The notes beneath the pieces are model-generated. The model saw nothing but the letters and a program-made list of their open reading frames with translations. It was not told where the DNA came from and did not search any database. A stretch of DNA of 64,000 bases from Pseudomonadota bacterium (GTDB lineage: Bacteria > Pseudomonadota > Gammaproteobacteria > Burkholderiales > Rhodocyclaceae), in NCBI GenBank assembly GCA_029776255.1, contig JAKOTN010000078.1:1860-65859 (forward strand), in the 5' to 3' direction. The position numbers and the translations under genes are program-made. Positions 3,618-46,132 of this stretch are shown piece by piece; position 1 is the stretch's first letter; every line of letters begins with the position of its first letter.

Positions 3618-4694
3618 TCAGTGGGTCCCCTCGCTAAGCTCGCGGCGTCGTTGCGACGAGGGCCACAAACCCGCCGGGCGGAAGCGCATCACCAGTACCA
3701 GAGCCAAGCCGAAAACCAGCATGCGCATGCTTTCCGGATCGACGACCGGGTGTCCGAAAACCATGCGCTGCAGCGGATCGATACCGTACCGCAACGCTTC
3801 CGGCAAGGCGGTCAGCAGAATCGCGCCAAGGATGACACCGGGGATGTGTCCCATGCCGCCAAGAACAACCATCGCCAAAATGGTGATCGACTCCATCAAA
3901 GAAAAGCTTTCCGGGCTGACGAAACCCTGCATCGCGGAAAAAACGCCGCCGGCGATACCACCAAATGACGCGCCCATGGCAAAAGCCAATAATTTGATAT
4001 TGCGGGTATTGATGCCGCACGCCTTGGCCGCCACCTCATCTTCGCGGATCGCTTGCCACGCGCGTCCGATACGGGAATCCTGCAGGCGGATATTGATGAA
4101 GATGACCAGAATCGCCAATGTCACAAGGAGGAAATAGTACTTGTGCGGTCCATTGATGCTCACGCCGAATACGGTGGAGGTTTGCGCAAAGGAAAAGTCG
4201 CCGATGCGGATCGGGTCGATCAAGGTAATCCCCTGCGCACCGTTGGTGATGTTGATTGGCGCGTTGAGGTTGTTCATGAATATACGAATGATCTCGCCGA
4301 AACCCAGGGTGACGATCGCCAGATAGTCTCCACGCAATTTCAGGGTCGGCGCTCCCAGAATGACGCCAAAAAAACAGGCCAATGCGGCGCCAAAGGGCAA
4401 TATCACCCAAAACGGAAGATGAATTCCGAAATGCGGCGAGGCCAGCAAGGCATAGGTATAAGCGCCGACAGCGTAGAAGGCAACGTAACCCAGGTCGAGC
4501 AGTCCGGCGTAACCGACAACGATGTTCAGGCCCAGCGCCAAGAAAATATAAAGGATGGCGAAGTTGGCGATACGCACCCACGCCTGCCCACCGAGAGCCG
4601 CAACGAAAGGTACGGCCACCAGAACGACGGCCACCAACAGCATGCCCAACCAATGCCGTTGCCAGGAAACGGTTTTTCCTACACGCCGGTTCAT
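3618..4694 (-). CDS. livM: branched-chain amino acid ABC transporter permease
   Basis: GLNIVVGYAGLLDLGYVAFYAVGAY, LKLRGDYLAIVTLGFGEIIRI, GRAWQAIREDE. Confidence 0.9.
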   Translation of the reverse strand: MNRRVGKTVSWQRHWLGMLLVAVVLVAVPFVAALGGQAWVRIANFAILYIFLALGLNIVVGYAGLLDLGYVAFYAVGAYTYALLASPHFGIHLPFWVILPFGAALACFFGVILGAPTLKLRGDYLAIVTLGFGEIIRIFMNNLNAPINITNGAQGITLIDPIRIGDFSFAQTSTVFGVSINGPHKYYFLLVTLAILVIFINIRLQDSRIGRAWQAIREDEVAAKACGINTRNIKLLAFAMGASFGGIAGGVFSAMQGFVSPESFSLMESITILAMVVLGGMGHIPGVILGAILLTALPEALRYGIDPLQRMVFGHPVVDPESMRMLVFGLALVLVMRFRPAGLWPSSQRRRELSEGTH

Positions 4695-5620
4695 GCCCGA
4701 TCTCCCGTACGCTCGCCAAACAGACCCGACGGGCGGAACATCAACACCACGATCAGGACGATGAACGCGAAGATATCCTGGTAGTGACTACCGAGAAAAT
4801 CGCCGGTCAGATCACCGATGTAACCCGCGCCAAGCGCCTCAATGACGCCGAGCAGAATACCGCCAGCCATCGCACCCGCCAGATTGCCGATACCCCCCAG
4901 AACCGCTGCGGTGAATGCCTTCAAGCCAAGCATGAAACCCATCTGGTAATGCGCGATTTCGTAATACGAACCAACCATGCAACCAGCGACCGCGCCCAGC
5001 GCCGAACCGATGACGAATGCCATGGCAATGACGCGATTGATATCGACACCCATCAGCGACGCGACATGCGGGTTTTGCGCGGTCGCCCGCATCGCCATGC
5101 CAATCTTGGTACGGTGCACCAGATAAATCAGACCGACCATCATCACCGCCGCCAACGAAACGATCGCCACCTGGACATTGGTAAAACTCGCACCACCGAT
5201 GTCATAGATTATTTTCTCGATCATCGGCGGAAAAGTGATGTAGTTCCTGCCCCAGATGATCATCGCCACATTCTGCAAAACAATGGACATCCCAATGGCG
5301 GTGATCAGCGGCGTCAATCTTGGCGCATGTCGCAACGGACGGTAAGCAACGCGTTCCAGCGCCCAACCGAGAACCATGCACACGATTACCGAAACAACCA
5401 GACCGATGCCGAGCACGATCAACAAAGGCATGCCGGAACCGGCAAGGGAAACGATGACCGTGAAGGCAACCATCGTGCCGATCATCACCACCTCGCCGTG
5501 CGCGAAATTGATCAGGCCGATAATTCCGTACACCATCGTATAACCCAAGGCGACCAGTGCGTAGACCGCACCCAAGGTTATACCGTTAATCAACTGCTGA
5601 AGGAGAGTATCCATGGTCAA
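4691..5620 (-). CDS. livH: branched-chain amino acid ABC transporter permease
   Basis: ALGYTMVYGIIGLINFAHGE, GLKAFTAAVLGGIG; 4-bp overlap with livM. Confidence 0.9.
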   Translation of the reverse strand: MTMDTLLQQLINGITLGAVYALVALGYTMVYGIIGLINFAHGEVVMIGTMVAFTVIVSLAGSGMPLLIVLGIGLVVSVIVCMVLGWALERVAYRPLRHAPRLTPLITAIGMSIVLQNVAMIIWGRNYITFPPMIEKIIYDIGGASFTNVQVAIVSLAAVMMVGLIYLVHRTKIGMAMRATAQNPHVASLMGVDINRVIAMAFVIGSALGAVAGCMVGSYYEIAHYQMGFMLGLKAFTAAVLGGIGNLAGAMAGGILLGVIEALGAGYIGDLTGDFLGSHYQDIFAFIVLIVVLMFRPSGLFGERTGDRA

Positions 5621-38455: not shown

Positions 38456-39481
38456 TCAACCGTTTTCTTGAGCCACGCTCACCCGTACCCGCGTGTCCGT
38501 CTCTTCGAACGCAAAACGCACCGGGAGAAATGCCTCGATGACCTGGCAATTGGTTCGGAGATGCGAAGACAACACCTGCGTCGTGAAGCTCCCCTGCCCG
38601 CTCAGCGCCATCGGCAACAGCAACTGATCGGACAGATATTCGCCAATCGGCGCGCCGCTGTCGCGGAACAGACGCGCCGCGCGAGCGGCGCTGTCGGCCA
38701 CCCTTTCCGCCGGCACGCCGCGTTCGCCGCGGACGGAAAACACTTCCGTCACTTCCGGATAGTCCAGCACCACCAGCAGCACATTGCCCGGTCCCTCGTT
38801 GCTCGGCAGCACGCGCAATTCCTCGTCCAGCACGCCAAGCTGGCTGGCGGCCCGCTGCATCTCGCGCCGGGCCACTTCAGCCGGCACACCGGCCACCACC
38901 CCGATCGCGCCCTGACGACGCAGATCGCCTCGCGTATTCAGGTGCAAGGACCGCCAGGACGCGACCGGCGCCGTCGACGCCAGCATCTCGCCGCCGCCCG
39001 CCGGGTAAAAACCGTGACGCAGCAACCGGATATCCAGCGTCACGCCCATGCGCCGGATCAGCGGCTGCCAGCTACGAATCAGGAAATCCGCCGGCGGCGC
39101 CGCCGGGTTATGCGTGCCGCCGCTGATCCGCAACGTGCTCGGACCATCGGCGAACCACAATGCCGGCAACACTGTCTGCAACACCAACGTGCAACTGCCG
39201 GCCGAACCGATGGCATGACGATAATCGCCCCCGCGCACCGGCCCCGGCTTGAAACACAAGCCTTGCGATCCGGTCGTGGCGCCATCCACCTCGGCCCCGC
39301 ACACCGCCGCCGCGGCCTGCACCGCGGTCAAATGCTGGCGCAGCAGCCCCGGCTTCCTGCGCCCGGCGCGAATGCGCTCGATGACGAAAGGAATGCCGGT
39401 AATCATCGACAGGCTCAAGGCCGTCCGCAAAATCTGGCCCCCGCCCTCACCGCGGGAGCCGTCCAGTTCTATCCAATCCAT
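38456..39481 (-). CDS. rtcA: RNA 3'-terminal phosphate cyclase
   Basis: LDGSRGEGGGQILRTALSLS, GLLRQHLTAV, GGTHNP.APP, HGFYPAGGGE, EYLSDQLLLP. Confidence 0.93.
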   Translation of the reverse strand: MDWIELDGSRGEGGGQILRTALSLSMITGIPFVIERIRAGRRKPGLLRQHLTAVQAAAAVCGAEVDGATTGSQGLCFKPGPVRGGDYRHAIGSAGSCTLVLQTVLPALWFADGPSTLRISGGTHNPAAPPADFLIRSWQPLIRRMGVTLDIRLLRHGFYPAGGGEMLASTAPVASWRSLHLNTRGDLRRQGAIGVVAGVPAEVARREMQRAASQLGVLDEELRVLPSNEGPGNVLLVVLDYPEVTEVFSVRGERGVPAERVADSAARAARLFRDSGAPIGEYLSDQLLLPMALSGQGSFTTQVLSSHLRTNCQVIEAFLPVRFAFEETDTRVRVSVAQENG

Positions 39482-39498
39482 CTTGTTTTTCTCGTTGT

Positions 39499-40323
39499 TC
39501 ACTTCATTTCCGGCGACACCGCCAGCACCGTGCGCATCAGAAACGCATCCAGTTCGGCGGCGTCGCCTTCCGGCCTTTTGTAATCGGCATCGACAACGGC
39601 TCTCGCCAGTTCGCTTTCGATAAAGGAGTGGATACGCGGCCAGCGCGGGCTGTATCCGGCCTCGTCGGCGCGCATCTTGATTGCCAGCAGGGCGTTGATT
39701 TCGTCGAGCAGCGCCGCGTCCGTCACCAGATGCCCAGCCAGATCGGCGAAGCGCATCGGCGGCTGGCCGAGGCCGCGTTCGATCCACTGCGCCGCGAGCA
39801 GCGGACGCAGCACGTAGAGGTACTTTTTCAGGCGCACGCTGTCGCCCTGCAAGTAGCCGCGAAAGTTGCGATGCGCCATCGCCAGGTAGTGATAGCGCCC
39901 GCGCCTCGGCGAAAACCACTGCGTCGCCAAGGTCCGAATTTCGGTGCTCAACGCCTCGTATTGCCGATAAATGACCGGCGAATCGAGCCATTCGAGCAGC
40001 ACCGGATTGGCCCGCCGCAACAGACGCAGCGCCTTGCGCAACTCCCAGCCACCGACATCCAGTTCGTCGCTGATCGGCAGTTCGATCACGTCGCGCTTCG
40101 GCTCCACGGCGAGATACCAGGGCAGGCGATGGACATAGAGAAAACGCACGTCGTAGTCGCTGTCCGGCGACGCAAAGCCCCAGCCCCGACTGCCGGACTC
40201 GCAGGCGTAAAGCACCGTCACGTCATGCGCCGCCTCGATGTCGGCGAGCGCCTGCATGACGCGCTGGCGGATCGCCGGGTCGATGAGGTGGACGCTCAGT
40301 ACTTTTTGTTTTTCGGTTTCCAT
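39499..40323 (-). CDS. RNA-repair-associated pol-beta-fold nucleotidyltransferase (RlaP/YcgL type)
   Basis: ACESGSRGWGFASPDSDYDVRF, WELRKALRLL...NP.LLEWL.SP, VRLKKYLYVLRP. Confidence 0.82.
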   Translation of the reverse strand: METEKQKVLSVHLIDPAIRQRVMQALADIEAAHDVTVLYACESGSRGWGFASPDSDYDVRFLYVHRLPWYLAVEPKRDVIELPISDELDVGGWELRKALRLLRRANPVLLEWLDSPVIYRQYEALSTEIRTLATQWFSPRRGRYHYLAMAHRNFRGYLQGDSVRLKKYLYVLRPLLAAQWIERGLGQPPMRFADLAGHLVTDAALLDEINALLAIKMRADEAGYSPRWPRIHSFIESELARAVVDADYKRPEGDAAELDAFLMRTVLAVSPEMK

Positions 40324-40336
40324 GATGTTGTCTAAC

Positions 40337-40442
40337 GAAGCTGTAGAAAAAATAGTTTTCCGTAAGCTGATTGTTCGTAACTCATTGAATAATAGATATA
40401 TACATTGGCACAAATGACCGTTTTGGGGTTTTCTACAGCTTC
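40337..40442. mobile_element. 106-bp MITE-like element
   Basis: 14-bp perfect TIRs GAAGCTGTAGAAAA (40337-40350, 40429-40442), AAC duplicated at 40334-40336 and 40443-40445, 37/106 GC by hand count. Confidence 0.75.
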
Positions 40443-40529
40443 AACGTTGTAGATAAGAGGATCTGCGCGGAGCTTTATCGAGCATCGCCCAGCGACCGAA
40501 GGGAGCGGCCTTGACCACGATCGTTAGAC
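40443..40529 (-). mobile_element. integron attC recombination site (R' core interrupted by the MITE)
   Basis: minus strand GTCTAAC (R'') - GGTCAAGG (L'') ... TCTTATC (L') - TACAAC - GTT|AGAC (R'); the barstar stop TAA lies inside R''. Confidence 0.75.
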
Positions 40530-40812
40530 ATACGCGACCTTTGACGCGAATTGTGGATACATTTTTGCCATATCGGTTAAGCACTTATTCATAAGCATTG
40601 CCTCCCCCTGGAAGGCGTAACTCAAACCCAGCCCAGCCTTTGAATTGAAGTATTTCTGGCATCGCAACCAGCACCGTGATTGCGTCCCAAAAAGCGTTCC
40701 AGTTGCAGCCGTACCAGCCTGGAAAATCAAGTTTTTCCATTAGTAAGTGGTGCAATTCAACGGGGGTTTGAACAGCGGATAAATCAATGATGACGCATGC
40801 GCTGCGAGCCAT
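40524..40812 (-). pseudogene. barstar-family (RNase inhibitor-like) cassette gene with a +1 frameshift
   Basis: IIDLS.V....LH..L...LDFPGWYGCNWNAFWDAIT; the C-terminus GEAMLMNKCLTDMAKMYPQFASKVAYV continues in another frame after a G5 run. Confidence 0.75.
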
Positions 40813-41064
40813 ATGAATGTCTAACAGTTCCGTCTTGCCCGAACGTAGGGCCTCCAAAGCCTCGAACCCGGTCAACAATTCAGCCGTACTTTGAGGTTGA
40901 TGCAGGCTGACTCCGGTTTTTTGCTCAACCAGATCAATGATTTCCTCGCGATCGACTCCAAGCTTATTCGCAACATGAAGGGCGCAGGAGCGTGCATGAG
41001 ATGCCCGATGTTTCAAAGGTAAGGATTCATCCTTGACCCGGTTACTGTTTGAACTGAATGACAT
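40585..41064 (-). CDS. AT-rich ORF of unknown function (84 codons) read in frame into the barstar gene
   Basis: ATG 3 nt after the rtcB stop, with AAGGA upstream; no recognisable motif in the first 84 aa. Confidence 0.45.
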   Translation of the reverse strand: MSFSSNSNRVKDESLPLKHRASHARSCALHVANKLGVDREEIIDLVEQKTGVSLHQPQSTAELLTGFEALEALRSGKTELLDIHMARSACVIIDLSAVQTPVELHHLLMEKLDFPGWYGCNWNAFWDAITVLVAMPEILQFKGWAGFELRLPGGGNAYE

Positions 41065-41067
41065 TTC

Positions 41068-42285
41068 CTATCCTTTCACACAAACCACCTGCCGCAACGT
41101 ATGCACCACTTCCACCAGATCGCGCTGGGCGTGCATCACGGCGTCGATGTCCTTGTAGGCCATCGGGATTTCGTCGATCACCTTGCTGTCCTTGCGGCAT
41201 TCGACGTGGGCGGTGGCCTTGATTTGATCGTCCACGGTGAAGCGGCGGCGGGCTTCGTTGCGGCTCATGGCACGGCCGGCACCGTGGCTGCACGAGCAGA
41301 AGGCGTCCTCGTTGCCAAGGCCGCGCACGATGTAGCTGCGGGCGCCCATCGACCCCGGAATGATCCCGAGTTCGCCCTTCTTCGCCGACACCGCCCCCTT
41401 GCGGGTGACCAGTACCTCGGCCCCGAAATGGGTTTCGTGCTGCACGTAGTTGTGGTGGCAGTTCACCGCCTCGGCGTCGGCCGTGAACGGCTTGGCGACG
41501 ATCTGGCGGGCGGCGGCGATCACGTTCGCCATCATCACGTCGCGATTACGGCGAGCGTAGTCCTGCGCCCAACCCACGGCTTCCACGTAATCGGCGAAGT
41601 GCGCGGAGCCTTCCTCGAAATAGGCCAGATCCTTGTCCGGCAGGTTGGCGATGTGCTGGCGCATGTCGGCCTGAGCCAGTTCGATGAAATGGCTACCAAT
41701 GGCGTTTCCCACCCCGCGCGAACCGGAATGCAGCATGAACCAGACCTGATCGGCCTCGTCCAGGCACACTTCGATGAAGTGGTTGCCGGTTCCCAGCGTT
41801 CCAAGATGCTTGTAATTGTTTGTATTTATCAGGCGCGGGTACTTCTCCGTGATGCGCGCGAAGCCCGGCGACAGCACAGACCACATGGCGTCGACGGCGT
41901 CCGGCGGGTTTTCCCAGGAACCCTTATCGCGGCGACCGCGGGTCATCGTTCGCCCGTGCGGCACCGCCACCTCGATGGCCGAACGCAGACCGTGCAGATT
42001 GTCCGGCAGATCGCCGGCGGTCAGCGTGGTGCGCGCCGCCATCATCCCGCAACCGATATCGACGCCGACCGCCGCCGGGATGATCGCGCCCTGCGTCGGG
42101 ATCACGCTGCCGATGGTCGAGCCTTTACCGAGATGCACGTCCGGCATCACCGCCAGGTGGCGGAAGATGAACGGCATTCGGGCCGTGTTCATCAGCTGTT
42201 TGCGGGCGTCGTCCTCGACCGGCACGCCTTCGGTCCACAGCTTGATCGGCTTGCCGTCGGTCACGTCTTGTACTTGATACGTCAT
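41068..42285 (-). CDS. rtcB: RNA-splicing ligase RtcB
   Basis: AVMPDVHLGKG.TIGSV, VGVDIGCG, GTLGTGNHFIE, HSGSRG, HHNY, IPGSMG, SHGAGR, DEIPMAYK. Confidence 0.96.
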   Translation of the reverse strand: MTYQVQDVTDGKPIKLWTEGVPVEDDARKQLMNTARMPFIFRHLAVMPDVHLGKGSTIGSVIPTQGAIIPAAVGVDIGCGMMAARTTLTAGDLPDNLHGLRSAIEVAVPHGRTMTRGRRDKGSWENPPDAVDAMWSVLSPGFARITEKYPRLINTNNYKHLGTLGTGNHFIEVCLDEADQVWFMLHSGSRGVGNAIGSHFIELAQADMRQHIANLPDKDLAYFEEGSAHFADYVEAVGWAQDYARRNRDVMMANVIAAARQIVAKPFTADAEAVNCHHNYVQHETHFGAEVLVTRKGAVSAKKGELGIIPGSMGARSYIVRGLGNEDAFCSCSHGAGRAMSRNEARRRFTVDDQIKATAHVECRKDSKVIDEIPMAYKDIDAVMHAQRDLVEVVHTLRQVVCVKG

Positions 42286-42350
42286 TTTTCTTTCCTTTCC
42301 GCCCGAAGCACGATGGTAGCGGCTTCAGGCACCCTTCCATTACATTGCAT

Positions 42351-42562
42351 TGGTGGACACGGCGGGACTCGAACCCGCGGTAAGCCGCCACCGGGCATTA
42401 CTCCGATGTGCGGAGAAGCTTTAAACGCGCATCATCCCAAGAACCTTACGCAGACCCCGGGACTGCATCTTCAAATACCGCTCTCCACTAAAGCTTTCGG
42501 TTTTACCCTTCACCGGTCTCGTCACTCGTTTACCGGCCGCTCGCCGTTTCGCGTTCGTGCCC
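42351..42562 (-). ncRNA. 212-nt tRNA(Ala)/tmRNA-like RNA
   Basis: 5' GGGCACG pairs with 3' CGTGTCC (G3.U70), A73, CCA; T-arm GCGGG-TTCGAGT-CCCGC. Confidence 0.6.
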
Positions 42563-42623
42563 TTGTTCTTTCCCAAGCCGGAATCCCACGGTCAACCGGA
42601 AATTTCGACCAAATTTGAAATGG

Positions 42624-43760
42624 CTACTTCGCCAACGTCACCAGCCCGTTCAGCACCTGATCGAGTCCCCCGAAAACCGAGATCCGGTCGATACGTTCGG
42701 CCACCCGTTCCAGGGTTTCGAGTTCTTTCAAGCGCAAGGCGGTCGGGTTGTCTTCCATGACCTTGGCGGTGTTGAGCAGCGAACGGGTCGCCGCCGTTTC
42801 CTCGCGGCGACGGATCACGTTGGCTTCGGCGGCCTTACCCGCTTCCACCACTTGCGCCAGAATGGCTTTCATCTCACCCGGCAGCACGATGTCCTTGACG
42901 CCGACACCACCGATTTCCAGGCCGAAACCGGCCAGTTTCTTGGCGACATGGTCGCTTACCACCTCGTCGATCAACTGCTTGTTTTCCAGCAGTTCGTCGA
43001 GGTTGCGCGTGCCCACCGCCGCCCGCAGGCCAAATTGCAGCTCGCGATAGAGGTGTTCGGCCGGTTTGGCCAGCTTGTCGAAGGCGGTGCTCACGTCGTC
43101 GAAACGCCAGGTGGCGGCGAGGTTGAGGCGCAGCCCCACCTTGTCGCGGGTTAGGATTTCCTGCCCGCTCACTTCCATGCTCTGCCAACGCATATCCACC
43201 AATTCCAGATGCAGATCGCGATTGAAGCGCCAGTAGGCGCTCACGCCCGGCGACAGCAACGGTTGTTGCACGCCATCGATGCGCAGCAGGCCGACATGCG
43301 CCGCCGGTACCTGCACGACGAACACTCCGTTCAACCCCGACACCGGACGACCACGCAGCGACGGCTGCAACAGGCGTTTCACCATCTCCGCCGGCAACGC
43401 GGCGCCGTCTCGCAGATCGATTTTTTCGAGCCGCTGCGCCAGCAAGCCGCGCCAGTAGAAACACCGGGCCGCCGGCGGCAACACTTCGACCAGCACATCG
43501 TTTTCATAGCGCAACCCGACCTCGTCCTCGCTCAACTCCATGCCAACGAAATGGCGTTCGGCTTCGGCCGGATCGTTCTGGCGCAAGTAATCGACGAGGT
43601 CGGTATCGAGCATCGGCGTATCGGTGCGCCACACGGTCAGCGACAGTTCGTTGAACGGGTCGAACAGGAGGTGGCGACCCGGATTGAGGAGGCGCTGGAA
43701 ATCGCCGTTGCGCAGCAAGGCCGCACGCTCGTTTTTCTTCACGATGAAACGCTTCAACAT
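42624..43760 (-). CDS. SPFH/band-7 (slipin) family protein
   Basis: EVSGQEILTRDKV.LRLN, LQFGLRAAVG.R.LDELL, GVKDIVLPGEMK, RRREETAATRSLLNTAK...NP. Confidence 0.85.
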   Translation of the reverse strand: MLKRFIVKKNERAALLRNGDFQRLLNPGRHLLFDPFNELSLTVWRTDTPMLDTDLVDYLRQNDPAEAERHFVGMELSEDEVGLRYENDVLVEVLPPAARCFYWRGLLAQRLEKIDLRDGAALPAEMVKRLLQPSLRGRPVSGLNGVFVVQVPAAHVGLLRIDGVQQPLLSPGVSAYWRFNRDLHLELVDMRWQSMEVSGQEILTRDKVGLRLNLAATWRFDDVSTAFDKLAKPAEHLYRELQFGLRAAVGTRNLDELLENKQLIDEVVSDHVAKKLAGFGLEIGGVGVKDIVLPGEMKAILAQVVEAGKAAEANVIRRREETAATRSLLNTAKVMEDNPTALRLKELETLERVAERIDRISVFGGLDQVLNGLVTLAK

Positions 43761-44046
43761 TTTTCTTCTCCCTATTCTCAAGCGTCATGGTCAAACTTCG
43801 TCGGCGAATTCTGCCGGCTCGCGCCGGTCCGGCGGATGCCCCGGTCGGCTCTGACGGGGAAGCTTCCATGCCCGACATCCGGCGTCGCGCAAATCCGCGA
43901 CAGCCTGTCGTGGTTGCGCGGCATCGGCCGTCAGGCAGCGGACGCCCTGCCGCCGAAGCGGACCCGGGCACCGGGCCGAACCGGCGGCGGGTGCTTGCGC
44001 CTTCCGCAGCCGGCGGGTACTGCAATATCACTGTCGTGAAAGGACA

Positions 44047-44120
44047 GTCTTGGAGCGGGATTCGAACCCGCGACAGACCGTTTACAAGACGGTTGCTCTA
44101 TCCGACTGAGCTATCCAGTG
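44047..44120 (-). tRNA. tRNA-Thr(TGT)-like element with degenerate acceptor stem (pseudo-tRNA or tRNA mimic)
   Basis: TAGCTCAGTCGGATAGAGC D-arm, ACCGT-CTTGTAA-ACGGT anticodon arm, GCGGG-TTCGAAT-CCCGC T-arm; only 4 of 7 acceptor pairs, no CCA. Confidence 0.7.
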
Positions 44121-44121
44121 A

Positions 44122-44165
44122 TGGGGTGTTCGGGAATCGAACCCGAGCGCGCCACCAGGCGCCCC
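44122..44165 (-). ncRNA. miniature tRNA-like element (acceptor plus T-arm, no anticodon arm)
   Basis: GGGGCGC...TCGGG-TTCGATT-CCCGA-ACACCCC-A. Confidence 0.5.
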
Positions 44166-44290
44166 ACTATCGCTCTCTCGCGACGGCGGCATACGGCGGA
44201 ATGACCGGATTTTTCCAGATTCCACCGCACCGGCAGGATTCAAACCCCTAACCCGTCGGCCAGACCGCAAGTCGGCGATGTTTTCTTCTA

Positions 44291-44306
44291 AGCGAAAGCC
44301 GTGCCA
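44291..44306 (-). promoter_or_regulatory. sigma54 (-24/-12) promoter of the rtc operon
   Basis: TGGCACG-gctt-TCGCT on the minus strand, divergent from rtcR, with an AT-rich tract upstream. Confidence 0.8.
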
Positions 44307-44482
44307 GGAATTCGAAATAAATATAATGCACTGTATTAAGTGTATTTTTTAATTTTCCCGCGCGCCGGCCATGGAAATAGTGGATTAATTGATATACGTT
44401 TTTATATTTCTGGATAACGCGGAGGCACTGCAACCATGACTCGACCTTTTGTCCGCCAGCGATCGCTGACCCGGGGCGCATC

Positions 44483-46132
44483 ATGAAGAAAACCGTTGTC
44501 ATCGGTTTTCTCGGCACTCAACTGGATTACACCGGCAAAGGCAGCCAGCGCTGGGAAAAGTGGCGCCCGACGGTCGCCCTGTGCCAGCAGGATGACCTGA
44601 TCGTGCACCGTCTGGAAGTGATTCACGACGCGCGCAGCCGTGGACTGGCCGAACGCGTCGGCAACGACATCGCCCAAATCTCGCCGGAAACCGACTTCAA
44701 GCGCGTGGAACTGGAATTGCGCGATCCATGGGATTTCGAAGAGGTGTATACCGCCCTGCACGACCTCGCCCGCGCCTACCCATTCGATACGGAAAACGAG
44801 GATTACCTCATCCACATCACCACCGGCACCCACGTGGCGCAGATTTGCTGGTTTCTGCTCGCCGAGGCGCGTTACCTGCCGGCACGTCTGTTGCAAACCT
44901 CGCCGCCGCGCAAGACGGAGGTCGCCGACAGCGTCGGCCGCTACGAAATCATCGACCTCGACCTGTCGCGTTACGACCGTATCGCCCAGCGTTTCGCCCG
45001 CGAACGCGACGACGGCCTGTCTTTTCTCAAATCCGGCATCGCCACGCGCAACCCGGCATTCAACCGGATGATCGAGCAGATCGAGCGGGTTGCCGGTCGT
45101 TCGCGCGCGCCGATGCTGCTGGTCGGCCCGACCGGCGCCGGAAAGTCTTTCCTGGCTCGCCGCGTTTTTGAATTGAAACGCCAGCGCCAACAACTGAAAG
45201 GGCGTTTCATCGAAGTGAACTGCGCCACTCTGCGTGGCGATTCGGCGATGTCCACACTCTTCGGACACAGCAAGGGCGCGTTCACCGGTGCGCAACAGGA
45301 CCGGCCGGGACTGTTGCGGTCCGCCGACGGCGGTCTGCTCTTTCTGGATGAAATCGGCGAGCTCGGTCTCGACGAACAGGCGATGTTACTAAAAGCCATT
45401 GAAGAGAAACGATTTTTCCCCTTCGGTAGCGATCTCGAGGCACGCAGCGACTTCCAGTTGATCGCCGGAACGCATCGCGACCTGCGGCAACGGATGCGGC
45501 AAGGAAAATTCCGGGAAGACCTCTACGCGCGGATCAACCTGTGGACTTTCGATTTGCCCGGCCTCGCCGCCCGCCCGGAGGATATCGAACCCAACCTCGA
45601 TTACGAACTGGAGCGTTTTGCCGCGCAAAGCGGCCAGCAGGTGCGCTTCAACATCGAGGCCAAGCGCCGTTATCTGGCTTTCGCGACCTCGGCGGCGGCT
45701 CGCTGGCACGGGAATTTCCGCGAACTCGGCGCGTCCCTCACCCGCCTGGCCACGCTGGCCCCCGCCGGGCGTATCACCGAAGCCGATGTTGCCGACGAAA
45801 TCGCCCGTCTCACCACTGCCTGGAGCGACGAACCGAATACCGACGACGCTTGCGCCCGGCTGCTCGCCGGGGACGCGGATAAACTCGATCTCTTCGACCG
45901 CTGCCAGCTCAACACCGTCATCGCCGTCTGCCGTACCAGCCATAGTCTGTCGGAAGCCGGGCGTCGCCTGTTCGCCGTCTCCCGCGCCGAGAAAAGACAA
46001 AGCAACGACGCGGACCGACTACGCAAATACCTGGCGCGCTTTGCTCTCGGATTTGAAATGCTGCGTGACGAGATTATCCAAACAAAACAGCGCTCGGAAA
46101 GGCCAGCGCGCGAGCACTCCGAAATCGCGTGA
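44483..46132 (+). CDS. rtcR: sigma54 enhancer-binding regulator RtcR (CARF + AAA+ + HTH)
   Basis: TVVIGFLG..LD...RWEKWRPTV, DPWDFEEVY, HITTGTHVAQIC, GPTGAGKS, GAFTGA, NDADRLRKYLARF. Confidence 0.93.
   Translation: MKKTVVIGFLGTQLDYTGKGSQRWEKWRPTVALCQQDDLIVHRLEVIHDARSRGLAERVGNDIAQISPETDFKRVELELRDPWDFEEVYTALHDLARAYPFDTENEDYLIHITTGTHVAQICWFLLAEARYLPARLLQTSPPRKTEVADSVGRYEIIDLDLSRYDRIAQRFARERDDGLSFLKSGIATRNPAFNRMIEQIERVAGRSRAPMLLVGPTGAGKSFLARRVFELKRQRQQLKGRFIEVNCATLRGDSAMSTLFGHSKGAFTGAQQDRPGLLRSADGGLLFLDEIGELGLDEQAMLLKAIEEKRFFPFGSDLEARSDFQLIAGTHRDLRQRMRQGKFREDLYARINLWTFDLPGLAARPEDIEPNLDYELERFAAQSGQQVRFNIEAKRRYLAFATSAAARWHGNFRELGASLTRLATLAPAGRITEADVADEIARLTTAWSDEPNTDDACARLLAGDADKLDLFDRCQLNTVIAVCRTSHSLSEAGRRLFAVSRAEKRQSNDADRLRKYLARFALGFEMLRDEIIQTKQRSERPAREHSEIA

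Follow-up and report, generated by a model that had tools for sequence, protein, structure and literature searches.

A conserved, structured leader RNA with tRNA-like modules accompanies the SPFH gene in a Band-7/SPFH-type Rtc operon of a Rhodocyclaceae bacterium

Which RNA and which protein accompany the RNA ligase RtcB in an operon that carries several tRNA-like RNAs and no Ro60 gene? The question is raised by positions 38,456 to 46,132 of a 64,000-nucleotide (nt) stretch of DNA from a member of the Rhodocyclaceae (assembly GCA_029776255.1, contig JAKOTN010000078.1), hereafter called the window. The locus comprises a regulatory gene, rtcR, on the plus strand and, divergently transcribed and on the minus strand throughout from promoter to RtcA, an operon coding for an SPFH/Band-7 protein, RtcB, the nucleotidyltransferase RlaP and the cyclase RtcA (Table 1). 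The original prediction, made from the sequence alone, had described an expanded Rtc system in which RNAs take the role of proteins. Its gene order on one strand, behind a single sigma54 promoter divergent from rtcR, was confirmed by Pfam matches and by reading of the sequence, and the assignment to the RtcR/sigma54 RNA-repair operons with SPFH, RlaP and several tRNA mimics is supported by Pfam, Rfam and ARAGORN. The most conserved RNA of the locus had been missed, and consists of the non-tRNA parts of the leader that precedes the SPFH gene. The type of the operon, the conserved and structured nature of this leader and its linkage to SPFH are, in our estimation, highly probable.

The sigma54-type element and the SPFH start codon are separated by approximately 520 nt of non-coding DNA, and the transcript probably starts near position 44282, at the 5' edge of the first leader module. 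An alignment of 62 non-redundant leaders (A3) gave, by block-wise RNAalifold prediction, a structure of 108 pairs in 19 helices. Standard pairing was found in 88.9% of the cells, against 33-48% when the 3' partners were slid by one to three columns, and compensatory changes occurred in 82 of the 108 pairs, against 45-54 in the slid versions. The covariation score was 0.365, compared to 0.06-0.10 for the slid controls, and none of 500 shuffles equalled the observed value. By these pairing statistics the whole leader is a single structured RNA of about 480 nt; it is built of five modules, named M1 to M5, and a gap of about 50 nt separates its 3' end from the SPFH start codon. When 10 diverse leaders were compared with Rfam 15, tRNA was the only family to match.

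The first module, M1, harbors the invariant motifs GGC..AC.GG, CCGGUGC and AUGCCGC, and shows compensatory changes in 14 of its 19 pairs; a putative outer stem, seen by eye, competes with local hairpins. At the other end of the leader, the rod-like M5 is closed by a GCCGGC/GCCGGC helix, and its long-range helices (A3 columns 428-433/731-736 and 514-522/709-717) are 88-90% paired, with covariation in nearly all of their pairs. The small hairpin M4 is paired in 96% of the cells and has compensatory changes in three of four pairs, whereas a pairing enclosing M3 and M4 together was rejected as it is not conserved in L013 and other loci. Because four Pseudomonas loci without the tRNA-like modules keep M1, it appears that M1, and by its pairing statistics M5, form the constant core of the molecule and that the tRNA-like units are variable additions.

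Table 1. Location of the features of the rtcR-SPFH-rtcB locus, in window coordinates (aa, amino acids; ORF, open reading frame)
Feature	Position	Strand	Basis
rtcR	44483-46132	+	Pfam RtcR/CARF N-terminal domain 292.6 bits, Sigma54_activat 168.9 bits
sigma54-type promoter TGGCAC-N5-TCGC (-24 GG, -12 GC)	44306-44291	-	read from the sequence
M1, two covarying hairpins closed by a 3-base-pair helix	44166-44285	-	model R2, covariation
M2, acceptor/T-arm minihelix	44119-44165	-	comparison with relatives
M3, b7a-tRNA	44051-44118	-	Rfam tRNA 54.4 bits at 44117-44051; ARAGORN "tRNA-Thr(tgt)" 44120-44047
M4, small hairpin CUGUC-N7-GACAG	44031-44047	-	helix 11 of the tested structure
M5, long irregular rod of nested helices	43812-44023	-	helices 12-19 of the tested structure
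SPFH/Band-7 protein, 378 aa	43760-42624	-	Pfam Band_7 97.4 bits
R1, 212-nt RNA with tRNA-like end	42562-42351	-	Rfam tmRNA model 26.9 bits, sub-threshold
RtcB, 3'-phosphate RNA ligase	42285-41068	-	Pfam RtcB 432.6 bits
Insertion holding a 159-aa ORF (41064-40585), barstar-like in its C-terminal half	40324-41064	-	Pfam Barstar 41.6 bits
RlaP, Pol-beta-family nucleotidyltransferase	40323-39499	-	Pfam RlaP 316.2 bits
RtcA, RNA 3'-phosphate cyclase	about 39502-38456	-	Pfam RTC 254.6 bits, RTC_insert 44.4 bits

A protein-guided scan returned at least 490 relatives of the SPFH protein, from which 80 loci were kept, belonging to Rhodocyclaceae, other Burkholderiales and Pseudomonas; SPFH lies directly upstream of rtcB in most of them. 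The covariance model of M1 (R2) scores 90.8 bits in the window and gives a single match per locus in the window and 76 of the 80 relatives, always on the SPFH strand and roughly 400-520 nt upstream of the SPFH start. The contigs of the four negative loci end less than 320 nt upstream of the gene, and M1 is thus present in all 77 loci with adequate upstream sequence, the window included. Together with the pairing test on 62 leaders, this bears out a strong conservation of the leader RNAs. A pattern scan for M1 in viral contigs produced 117 chance matches, and model R2 confirmed none of the 80 loci that it returned.

The leader RNA accompanies the SPFH gene in all three groups, even in loci devoid of rtcR or rtcB. 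In five Burkholderiales loci without rtcR (L058, L060, L080, L083 and L088; about 3700-4900), leader and SPFH are found directly downstream of an array of up to 9-10 ordinary-looking tRNA genes. Both are also retained in four loci where no adjacent RtcB was found, and where they are followed by a Ser/Thr kinase matching the PD-T4-6 anti-phage family with 325.9 bits (L047:9042-10532), a similar protein with a Pkinase domain, recognised by its Pfam match only (L052:8186-9655), a TIR-methyltransferase protein (L046:5911-7239), or a 1085-aa HEAT-repeat protein in a locus that also has R1 (L050:3048-6305). Since the leader-SPFH pair persists without rtcR and without an adjacent RtcB, the leader RNA belongs, by genomic association, with SPFH rather than with RtcB or RtcR.

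Some further features of these neighborhoods can be mentioned. L047, L054 and L072 also belong to the loci that have leader and SPFH without rtcR beside tRNA gene arrays, an arrangement seen in Roseateles, Pelomonas, Caldimonas, Ramlibacter and Brachymonas, and the repair genes adjoin the tRNA gene cluster in such loci. Many loci harbor between SPFH and rtcB a small, basic ORF of 120-165 aa with a treble-clef zinc finger (PF13451, 40.2 bits), for example L013:1797-2222, L019:7178-7630, L024:7171-7617 and L063:7172-7570. This ORF is missing from the window and, depending on the locus, replaces R1 or accompanies it.

Two modules of the leader resemble tRNA. In M2, the seven nt located 3' of the T arm pair with an upstream 7-mer, usually 12-26 nt away, and this acceptor stem has at least six of its seven pairs in 45 of 48 leaders, its sequence varying widely between species (for example GAGTGGC/GCCACTC, GGGCAAT/ATTGCCC and CGTGAGG/CTTCACG). 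Most species have, 3' of the stem, a discriminator and CCA (NCCA) that directly abut the first base of M3, the CCA lying at most 6 nt from the start of M3 in 39 of 59 cases. The M2 position is occupied by a full cloverleaf in several Pseudomonas species.

M3 corresponds to the PA4581.1 gene of P. aeruginosa, and in most of the 80 loci ARAGORN calls a tRNA-like gene at a distance of 260-350 nt on the upstream side of SPFH. The window copy of M3 is mixed in its features: its D, anticodon and T arms are intact, its acceptor stem has only four pairs, and it lacks a CCA end. The triplets of its orthologues include CAT, AAG, AAT, GAT, TAT, GAC, GGT, ACG, TGT, CTC and TTT, some in non-standard loops: among 59 copies, 34 have a 7-nt loop with many different triplets, and 19 have loops of 4-6 nt (GAAA, GCAA, UUCG, CUUCGG). 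Because the triplet varies freely and these 19 copies have such short loops, M3 is a tRNA-shaped body rather than a decoder. Its identification as a real tRNA-Thr was rejected, since its acceptor stem is short, CCA is missing and the anticodon is variable. Also rejected was a permuted fold of the YrlA type that would combine the T arm of M2 with the D arm of M3, as M2 has a covarying acceptor stem of its own and M3 its own T arm.

The protein partner differs from what had been supposed. The original prediction placed the SPFH protein in the membrane as a scaffold, a suggestion that finds no support in its sequence, which has no hydrophobic segment (maximum 19-residue Kyte-Doolittle mean of 1.40). 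The AlphaFold2 model (mean predicted local distance difference test score 75.4) consists of an N-terminal beta domain modelled with confidence, a stomatin-like SPFH core and a long helix, so that the N-terminus holds a confidently modelled beta domain instead of a membrane anchor of the stomatin, HflK/C or flotillin type. This beta-rich domain, corresponding to residues 1-135, has no Pfam match. In a Foldseek search of the PDB, the best match of the model is human stomatin (9z7u, E = 2.7e-11), and the top ranks are held by human stomatin, prohibitin, erlin and HflK/C; rabbit major vault protein is aligned over 431 columns (E = 3.1e-09, TM-score 0.38). The model fits a soluble ring or cage better than a membrane scaffold.

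The operon has a further structured RNA, R1, located just before rtcB. It extends from GGGCACG to CGUGUCC-ACCA, with a perfect acceptor stem of seven base pairs (bp), a G3:U70 pair, a canonical T arm, a discriminator A and an encoded CCA, and a structured insert of about 150 nt separates the T arm from the 5' strand of the acceptor stem. Its score with the Rfam tmRNA model in a permissive scan (26.9 bits) does not reach the gathering score of 47, and ARAGORN reported no tmRNA in the window. A covariance model built from eight copies matched only L009, L013-L018, L050 (a divergent copy, 142.6 bits), G021 among 150 sampled genomes of the family, and three metagenome contigs. R1 was thus found only in a narrow Azonexus/Dechloromonas/Azovibrio group and as one divergent copy in a metagenome-assembled genome of the Zoogloeaceae; a metagenome pattern scan for diverse homologues of R1 recovered three near-identical copies only. 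The third acceptor pair is G:C in five of the nine distinct homologues, which means that G3:U70 is not conserved. No conserved tag reading frame was found in R1, as the nucleotides are kept while the open frame differs (L013/L014 versus the window and L009) and L050 loses the stop in the frame of the window. No pseudoknots were identified in R1, and the analogue of the tmRNA D loop, which binds SmpB, is largely absent from its model alignment. The identification of R1 as a true tmRNA was rejected on the Rfam score, the lack of an ARAGORN call, the lack of a tag frame and the variable third pair. From these comparisons, the most fitting description of R1 is that of a minihelix which ends in CCA and carries a large insert; in kind it is related to M2. 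At the R1 position of another locus, just before rtcB, lies an acceptor/T-arm minihelix of about 50 nt (L024:7560-7612; UGGACA...GGGCGGGUUCGAGUCCCGCC-A-UGUCCA-CCA), a miniature of the window R1 that overlaps the 3' end of the zinc-finger ORF.

The operon has the layout of an RtcR/sigma54-regulated rtcBA operon, with a divergent RtcR activator, a -24/-12 promoter identified by sequence match, and RtcB and RtcA coded on the same strand. RtcR is known to bind 5' halves of tRNAs ending in a 2',3'-cyclic phosphate. Among the listed relatives with an rtcR gene, nearly all show the promoter pattern TGGCA[CT]-N5-T[TC]GC at 452-556 nt from the SPFH ATG, on its upstream side. A scan for promoters and terminators found no excess of terminator-like sites in the window over shuffled sequence. 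As the sole terminator-like site between the promoter and rtcB falls inside the SPFH coding sequence, the data are compatible with one transcript running from the promoter through rtcB. The interval from the CCA end of R1 to the ribosome-binding site of rtcB (42286-42350, minus strand) contains a 9-bp hairpin (GCCUGAAGC...GCUUCGGGC), which might shield the new 5' end of the remaining mRNA once R1 has been excised. The likely start of rlaP is the ATG at 40323, and the candidates for rtcA are a GTG at 39502 and an ATG at 39481.

The RNase inhibitor that had been counted as part of the system does not belong to its conserved members. The barstar match covers residues 90-152 of a 159-aa ORF (41.6 bits for a cut-off of 23.4) and lies in an insertion of about 735 nt between the rtcB stop and the rlaP ATG. 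The insertion is absent from the closest relative (L009), where the rlaP ATG follows the rtcB stop by a few bases, and by tblastn the gap between the two genes is only 20-75 nt in most relatives having both. No barstar match was obtained by tblastn in any of the 80 related loci. The barstar-like gene is, by this comparison, a later insertion specific to this genome and lies outside the conserved system. Its frame appears broken at a run of G near 40600, with a second frame (40524-40730) continuing the protein, which could reflect an error of the assembly or a genuine frameshift.

What can be said of absent partners is qualified by the remainder of the genome. No match to the TROVE/Ro60 domain (PF05731) was found in the genome, which is 100% complete, while control genomes gave matches, and the absence of Ro60 that had been noted at the locus is valid genome-wide. 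The absence of PrfH stands for this locus only: a PrfH homologue (283 bits, above the NCBIfam cut-off) is coded directly after a second RtcB (232.9 bits) on contig C143 (L101:248-2115), and the genome thus possesses, besides the SPFH-type operon, a separate PrfH-RtcB2 rescue pair. A canonical tmRNA (178.7 bits) is present on a contig other than that of the window. With these two systems elsewhere, no tag frame, a third pair that is G:C in five of nine homologues and a narrow distribution, the proposal that the locus rescues ribosomes by means of a tmRNA-like RNA is not supported.

These observations suggest a Band-7/SPFH-type Rtc operon whose RNA of about 480 nt is matured, bound by SPFH and engaged in repair, a reading to which we assign a probability of about 0.55. 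The tRNA-like modules of the leader would be excised by tRNA-maturation enzymes. Because the NCCA of M2 directly abuts M3 in most species, a cut by RNase P at the 5' end of M3 may release M2 with an NCCA-3'OH end, and R1 might be matured in the same way as M2. One or more stable RNAs so produced would bind a soluble, ring- or cage-forming SPFH protein and form a ribonucleoprotein equivalent to Ro60 with its Y RNA. This particle could present or hold broken tRNA or rRNA for RtcA, which would cyclise the ends, for RlaP, which would add 3' nucleotides, and for RtcB, which would seal. RlaP extends RNA 3' ends by one or two nucleotides (bioRxiv 10.64898/2025.12.29.696909). According to this scheme, one pair of protein and RNA (SPFH and its RNA) replaces another (Ro60 and Y RNA), rather than RNAs taking over the role of proteins as the original prediction had it.

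Several points weigh against this reading. The M2 of the window is itself degenerate, with five of seven acceptor pairs and an AUCA tail instead of NCCA, and the acceptor stem of M3 measures just 4-6 bp, recognition of M3 by RNase P being an assumption. The internal fold of R1 rests on 5 covarying pairs out of 67, as identity among its sequences is about 93%. In Pseudomonas, four loci (L068, L075, L079 and L084) have lost the two tRNA-like modules, T loop and D arm being absent, and keep M1 (70-79 bits), SPFH, RtcB and RlaP; tRNA mimicry is therefore dispensable in some lineages. These loci come from P. aegrilactucae, P. donghuensis, P. rubra and P. brassicae. The RNA also sits in a 5' untranslated region (UTR), where a purely cis-regulatory role is conceivable. 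As for novelty, the structure of the whole leader, the M2 minihelix and the range of R1 go beyond the literature and Rfam 15 as far as these could be checked, and the 2016 work on b7a-tRNA may already note the flanks.

The cis-regulatory explanation holds that the leader senses damaged or uncharged tRNA, RNA ends or an RNase and thereby controls how stable the SPFH-rtcB mRNA is or how well it is translated, the tRNA-like units being processing or stability signals only. The RNA is indeed located, in every case, downstream of the promoter and upstream of the SPFH start codon, M5 ends 30-90 nt before the ribosome-binding site, no terminator-like sites are found between the modules, and M1 stays where the tRNA-like modules are lost. 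However, the closing helix of M5 excludes the ribosome-binding site, and the spacer to this site varies in length and sequence, while a leader of some 480 nt with 19 helices far exceeds known riboswitch leaders. Moreover, the NCCA encoded in M2 of most species suggests a free tRNA-like 3' end, and in some Burkholderiales the leader follows a tRNA gene array and not a regulated promoter. We hold this explanation to be rather unlikely.

Alternatively, the tRNA-like modules may be baits for ribotoxins, either amplifying induction when cleaved or soaking up the toxin as mimics. The anticodon loop of M3 changes faster than any other part of a molecule that hardly varies elsewhere, which is what an arms race would be expected to produce, and genes for barstar, TIR and PD-T4-6-like kinase proteins adjoin such modules; yet the short loops in 19 of the 59 M3 copies would remove the target of an anticodon nuclease, and such baits would be made only once RtcR is already active. 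The existence of four Pseudomonas loci without any tRNA-like module, and the lack of resemblance to tRNA in the best-conserved modules M1 and M5, also make this option improbable. It could further be proposed that R1 is a working tmRNA-like rescue RNA, charged with alanine via G3:U70, that enters stalled ribosomes without tagging, in the manner of mitochondrial tmRNAs reduced to the tRNA-like domain, and replaces PrfH in the operon. The tRNA-like end of R1, with its perfect 7-bp stem, G3:U70, discriminator A, encoded CCA and canonical T arm, the CCA-ending minihelix at the same position of L024 and the lack of PrfH in the locus would agree with such a role, which is nevertheless very improbable in view of the sub-threshold tmRNA score (26.9 versus 47 bits) and missing ARAGORN call, the G:C pair in most distinct homologues, the lack of a conserved frame or tag, the largely missing SmpB-binding analogue, the absence of R1 from most SPFH-rtcB loci, and the true tmRNA and PrfH-RtcB2 pair coded by the same genome.

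Few large, highly structured RNAs without assigned function are found in bacteria, and new biochemistry has come from them repeatedly. For the present one, the protein partner (a soluble SPFH protein), the pathway (Rtc RNA repair) and the regulator are all defined, and it also occurs in a laboratory model, P. aeruginosa, whose annotation lists the middle part of the RNA as an odd tRNA-Arg (PA4581.1). The question posed by the Band-7 system accordingly shifts from a stray tRNA-like gene to a 0.5-kb RNA-protein particle. Mimicry of tRNA appears modular, with zero to three units per locus, some of them CCA-ended, which constrains models of how cofactors of the Ro60/Y-RNA type and of the SPFH type help RtcB. 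A bolder possibility, which we regard as distinctly unlikely, is that the leader founds a class of its own among the large non-coding RNAs of bacteria and serves as the RNA subunit in a soluble SPFH cage similar to the vault. The CCA minihelices (M2, and R1 in this clade) would then undergo tRNA-type maturation, be aminoacylated or receive nucleotides from RlaP, and have tRNAs or damaged ribosomes as their sites of action. If this were true, an RNA-based rescue-and-repair particle would be widespread in Beta- and Gammaproteobacteria, including P. aeruginosa.

Comparison with known systems places the locus more precisely. With the vault particle, made of the major vault protein with its SPFH-like shoulder, vault RNA and the TROVE protein TEP1, it shares a soluble SPFH-fold protein and a dedicated small RNA, the resemblance being at the level of the fold only (TM-score 0.38) and the window system being known from sequence and model. 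Like the PrfH-RtcB pair, it would couple an RtcB ligase to a factor acting at the ribosome or on tRNA, but PrfH is absent from this operon and sits with RtcB2 on another contig. R1 has in common with tmRNA (RF00023), including the jakobid mitochondrial tmRNAs reduced to the tRNA-like domain, the acceptor stem with G3:U70 (in this genome), the T arm, the ACCA end and a large insert; it differs by its score below threshold, its lack of a tag frame and its unconserved G3:U70, and a true tmRNA exists elsewhere in the genome.

The rsr-yrlBA-rtcBA locus of Salmonella, with Ro60 and YrlA/YrlB, is likewise under RtcR/sigma54 control and has a tRNA-like non-coding RNA between the gene of a scaffold-type protein and rtcB, whereas no TROVE protein is coded in the genome of the window. 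YrlA has a permuted tRNA-like domain and a Ro-binding stem, in contrast to the linear tRNA-like units found here. Membership of the RNAs in the YrlA family (RF02553) was rejected, with scores of 20.8 and 19.2 bits for a gathering score of 69 and no Ro60 in the genome.

The closest likeness is to the system predicted by Burroughs and Aravind (2016), in which Band-7/SPFH and b7a-tRNA are proposed to be interchangeable with Ro60 and YrlA, according to bioRxiv 10.1101/312249. The window has SPFH upstream of rtcB, a non-decoding tRNA-like gene beside the Band-7 gene, and RlaP, and the skeleton of the operon is this known, computationally predicted Band-7/SPFH system. Both have SPFH by rtcB together with RlaP and RtcA, a tRNA-like gene just upstream of SPFH, and no Ro60. 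P. aeruginosa carries the same locus (PA4581.1-PA4585), with PA4581.1, a "tRNA-Arg4" without CCA, between rtcR and PA4582-PA4585 (PMC13637947) and PA14_60630 (PaFlo8) as the SPFH gene (PMC13086221). Whereas the 2016 work describes, as far as could be checked, one tRNA-sized RNA, the RNA described here measures about 480 nt and has five modules, of which M1 and M5 are the most constant and a CCA-ending M2 is usual, and to which the clade of the window adds the 212-nt R1.

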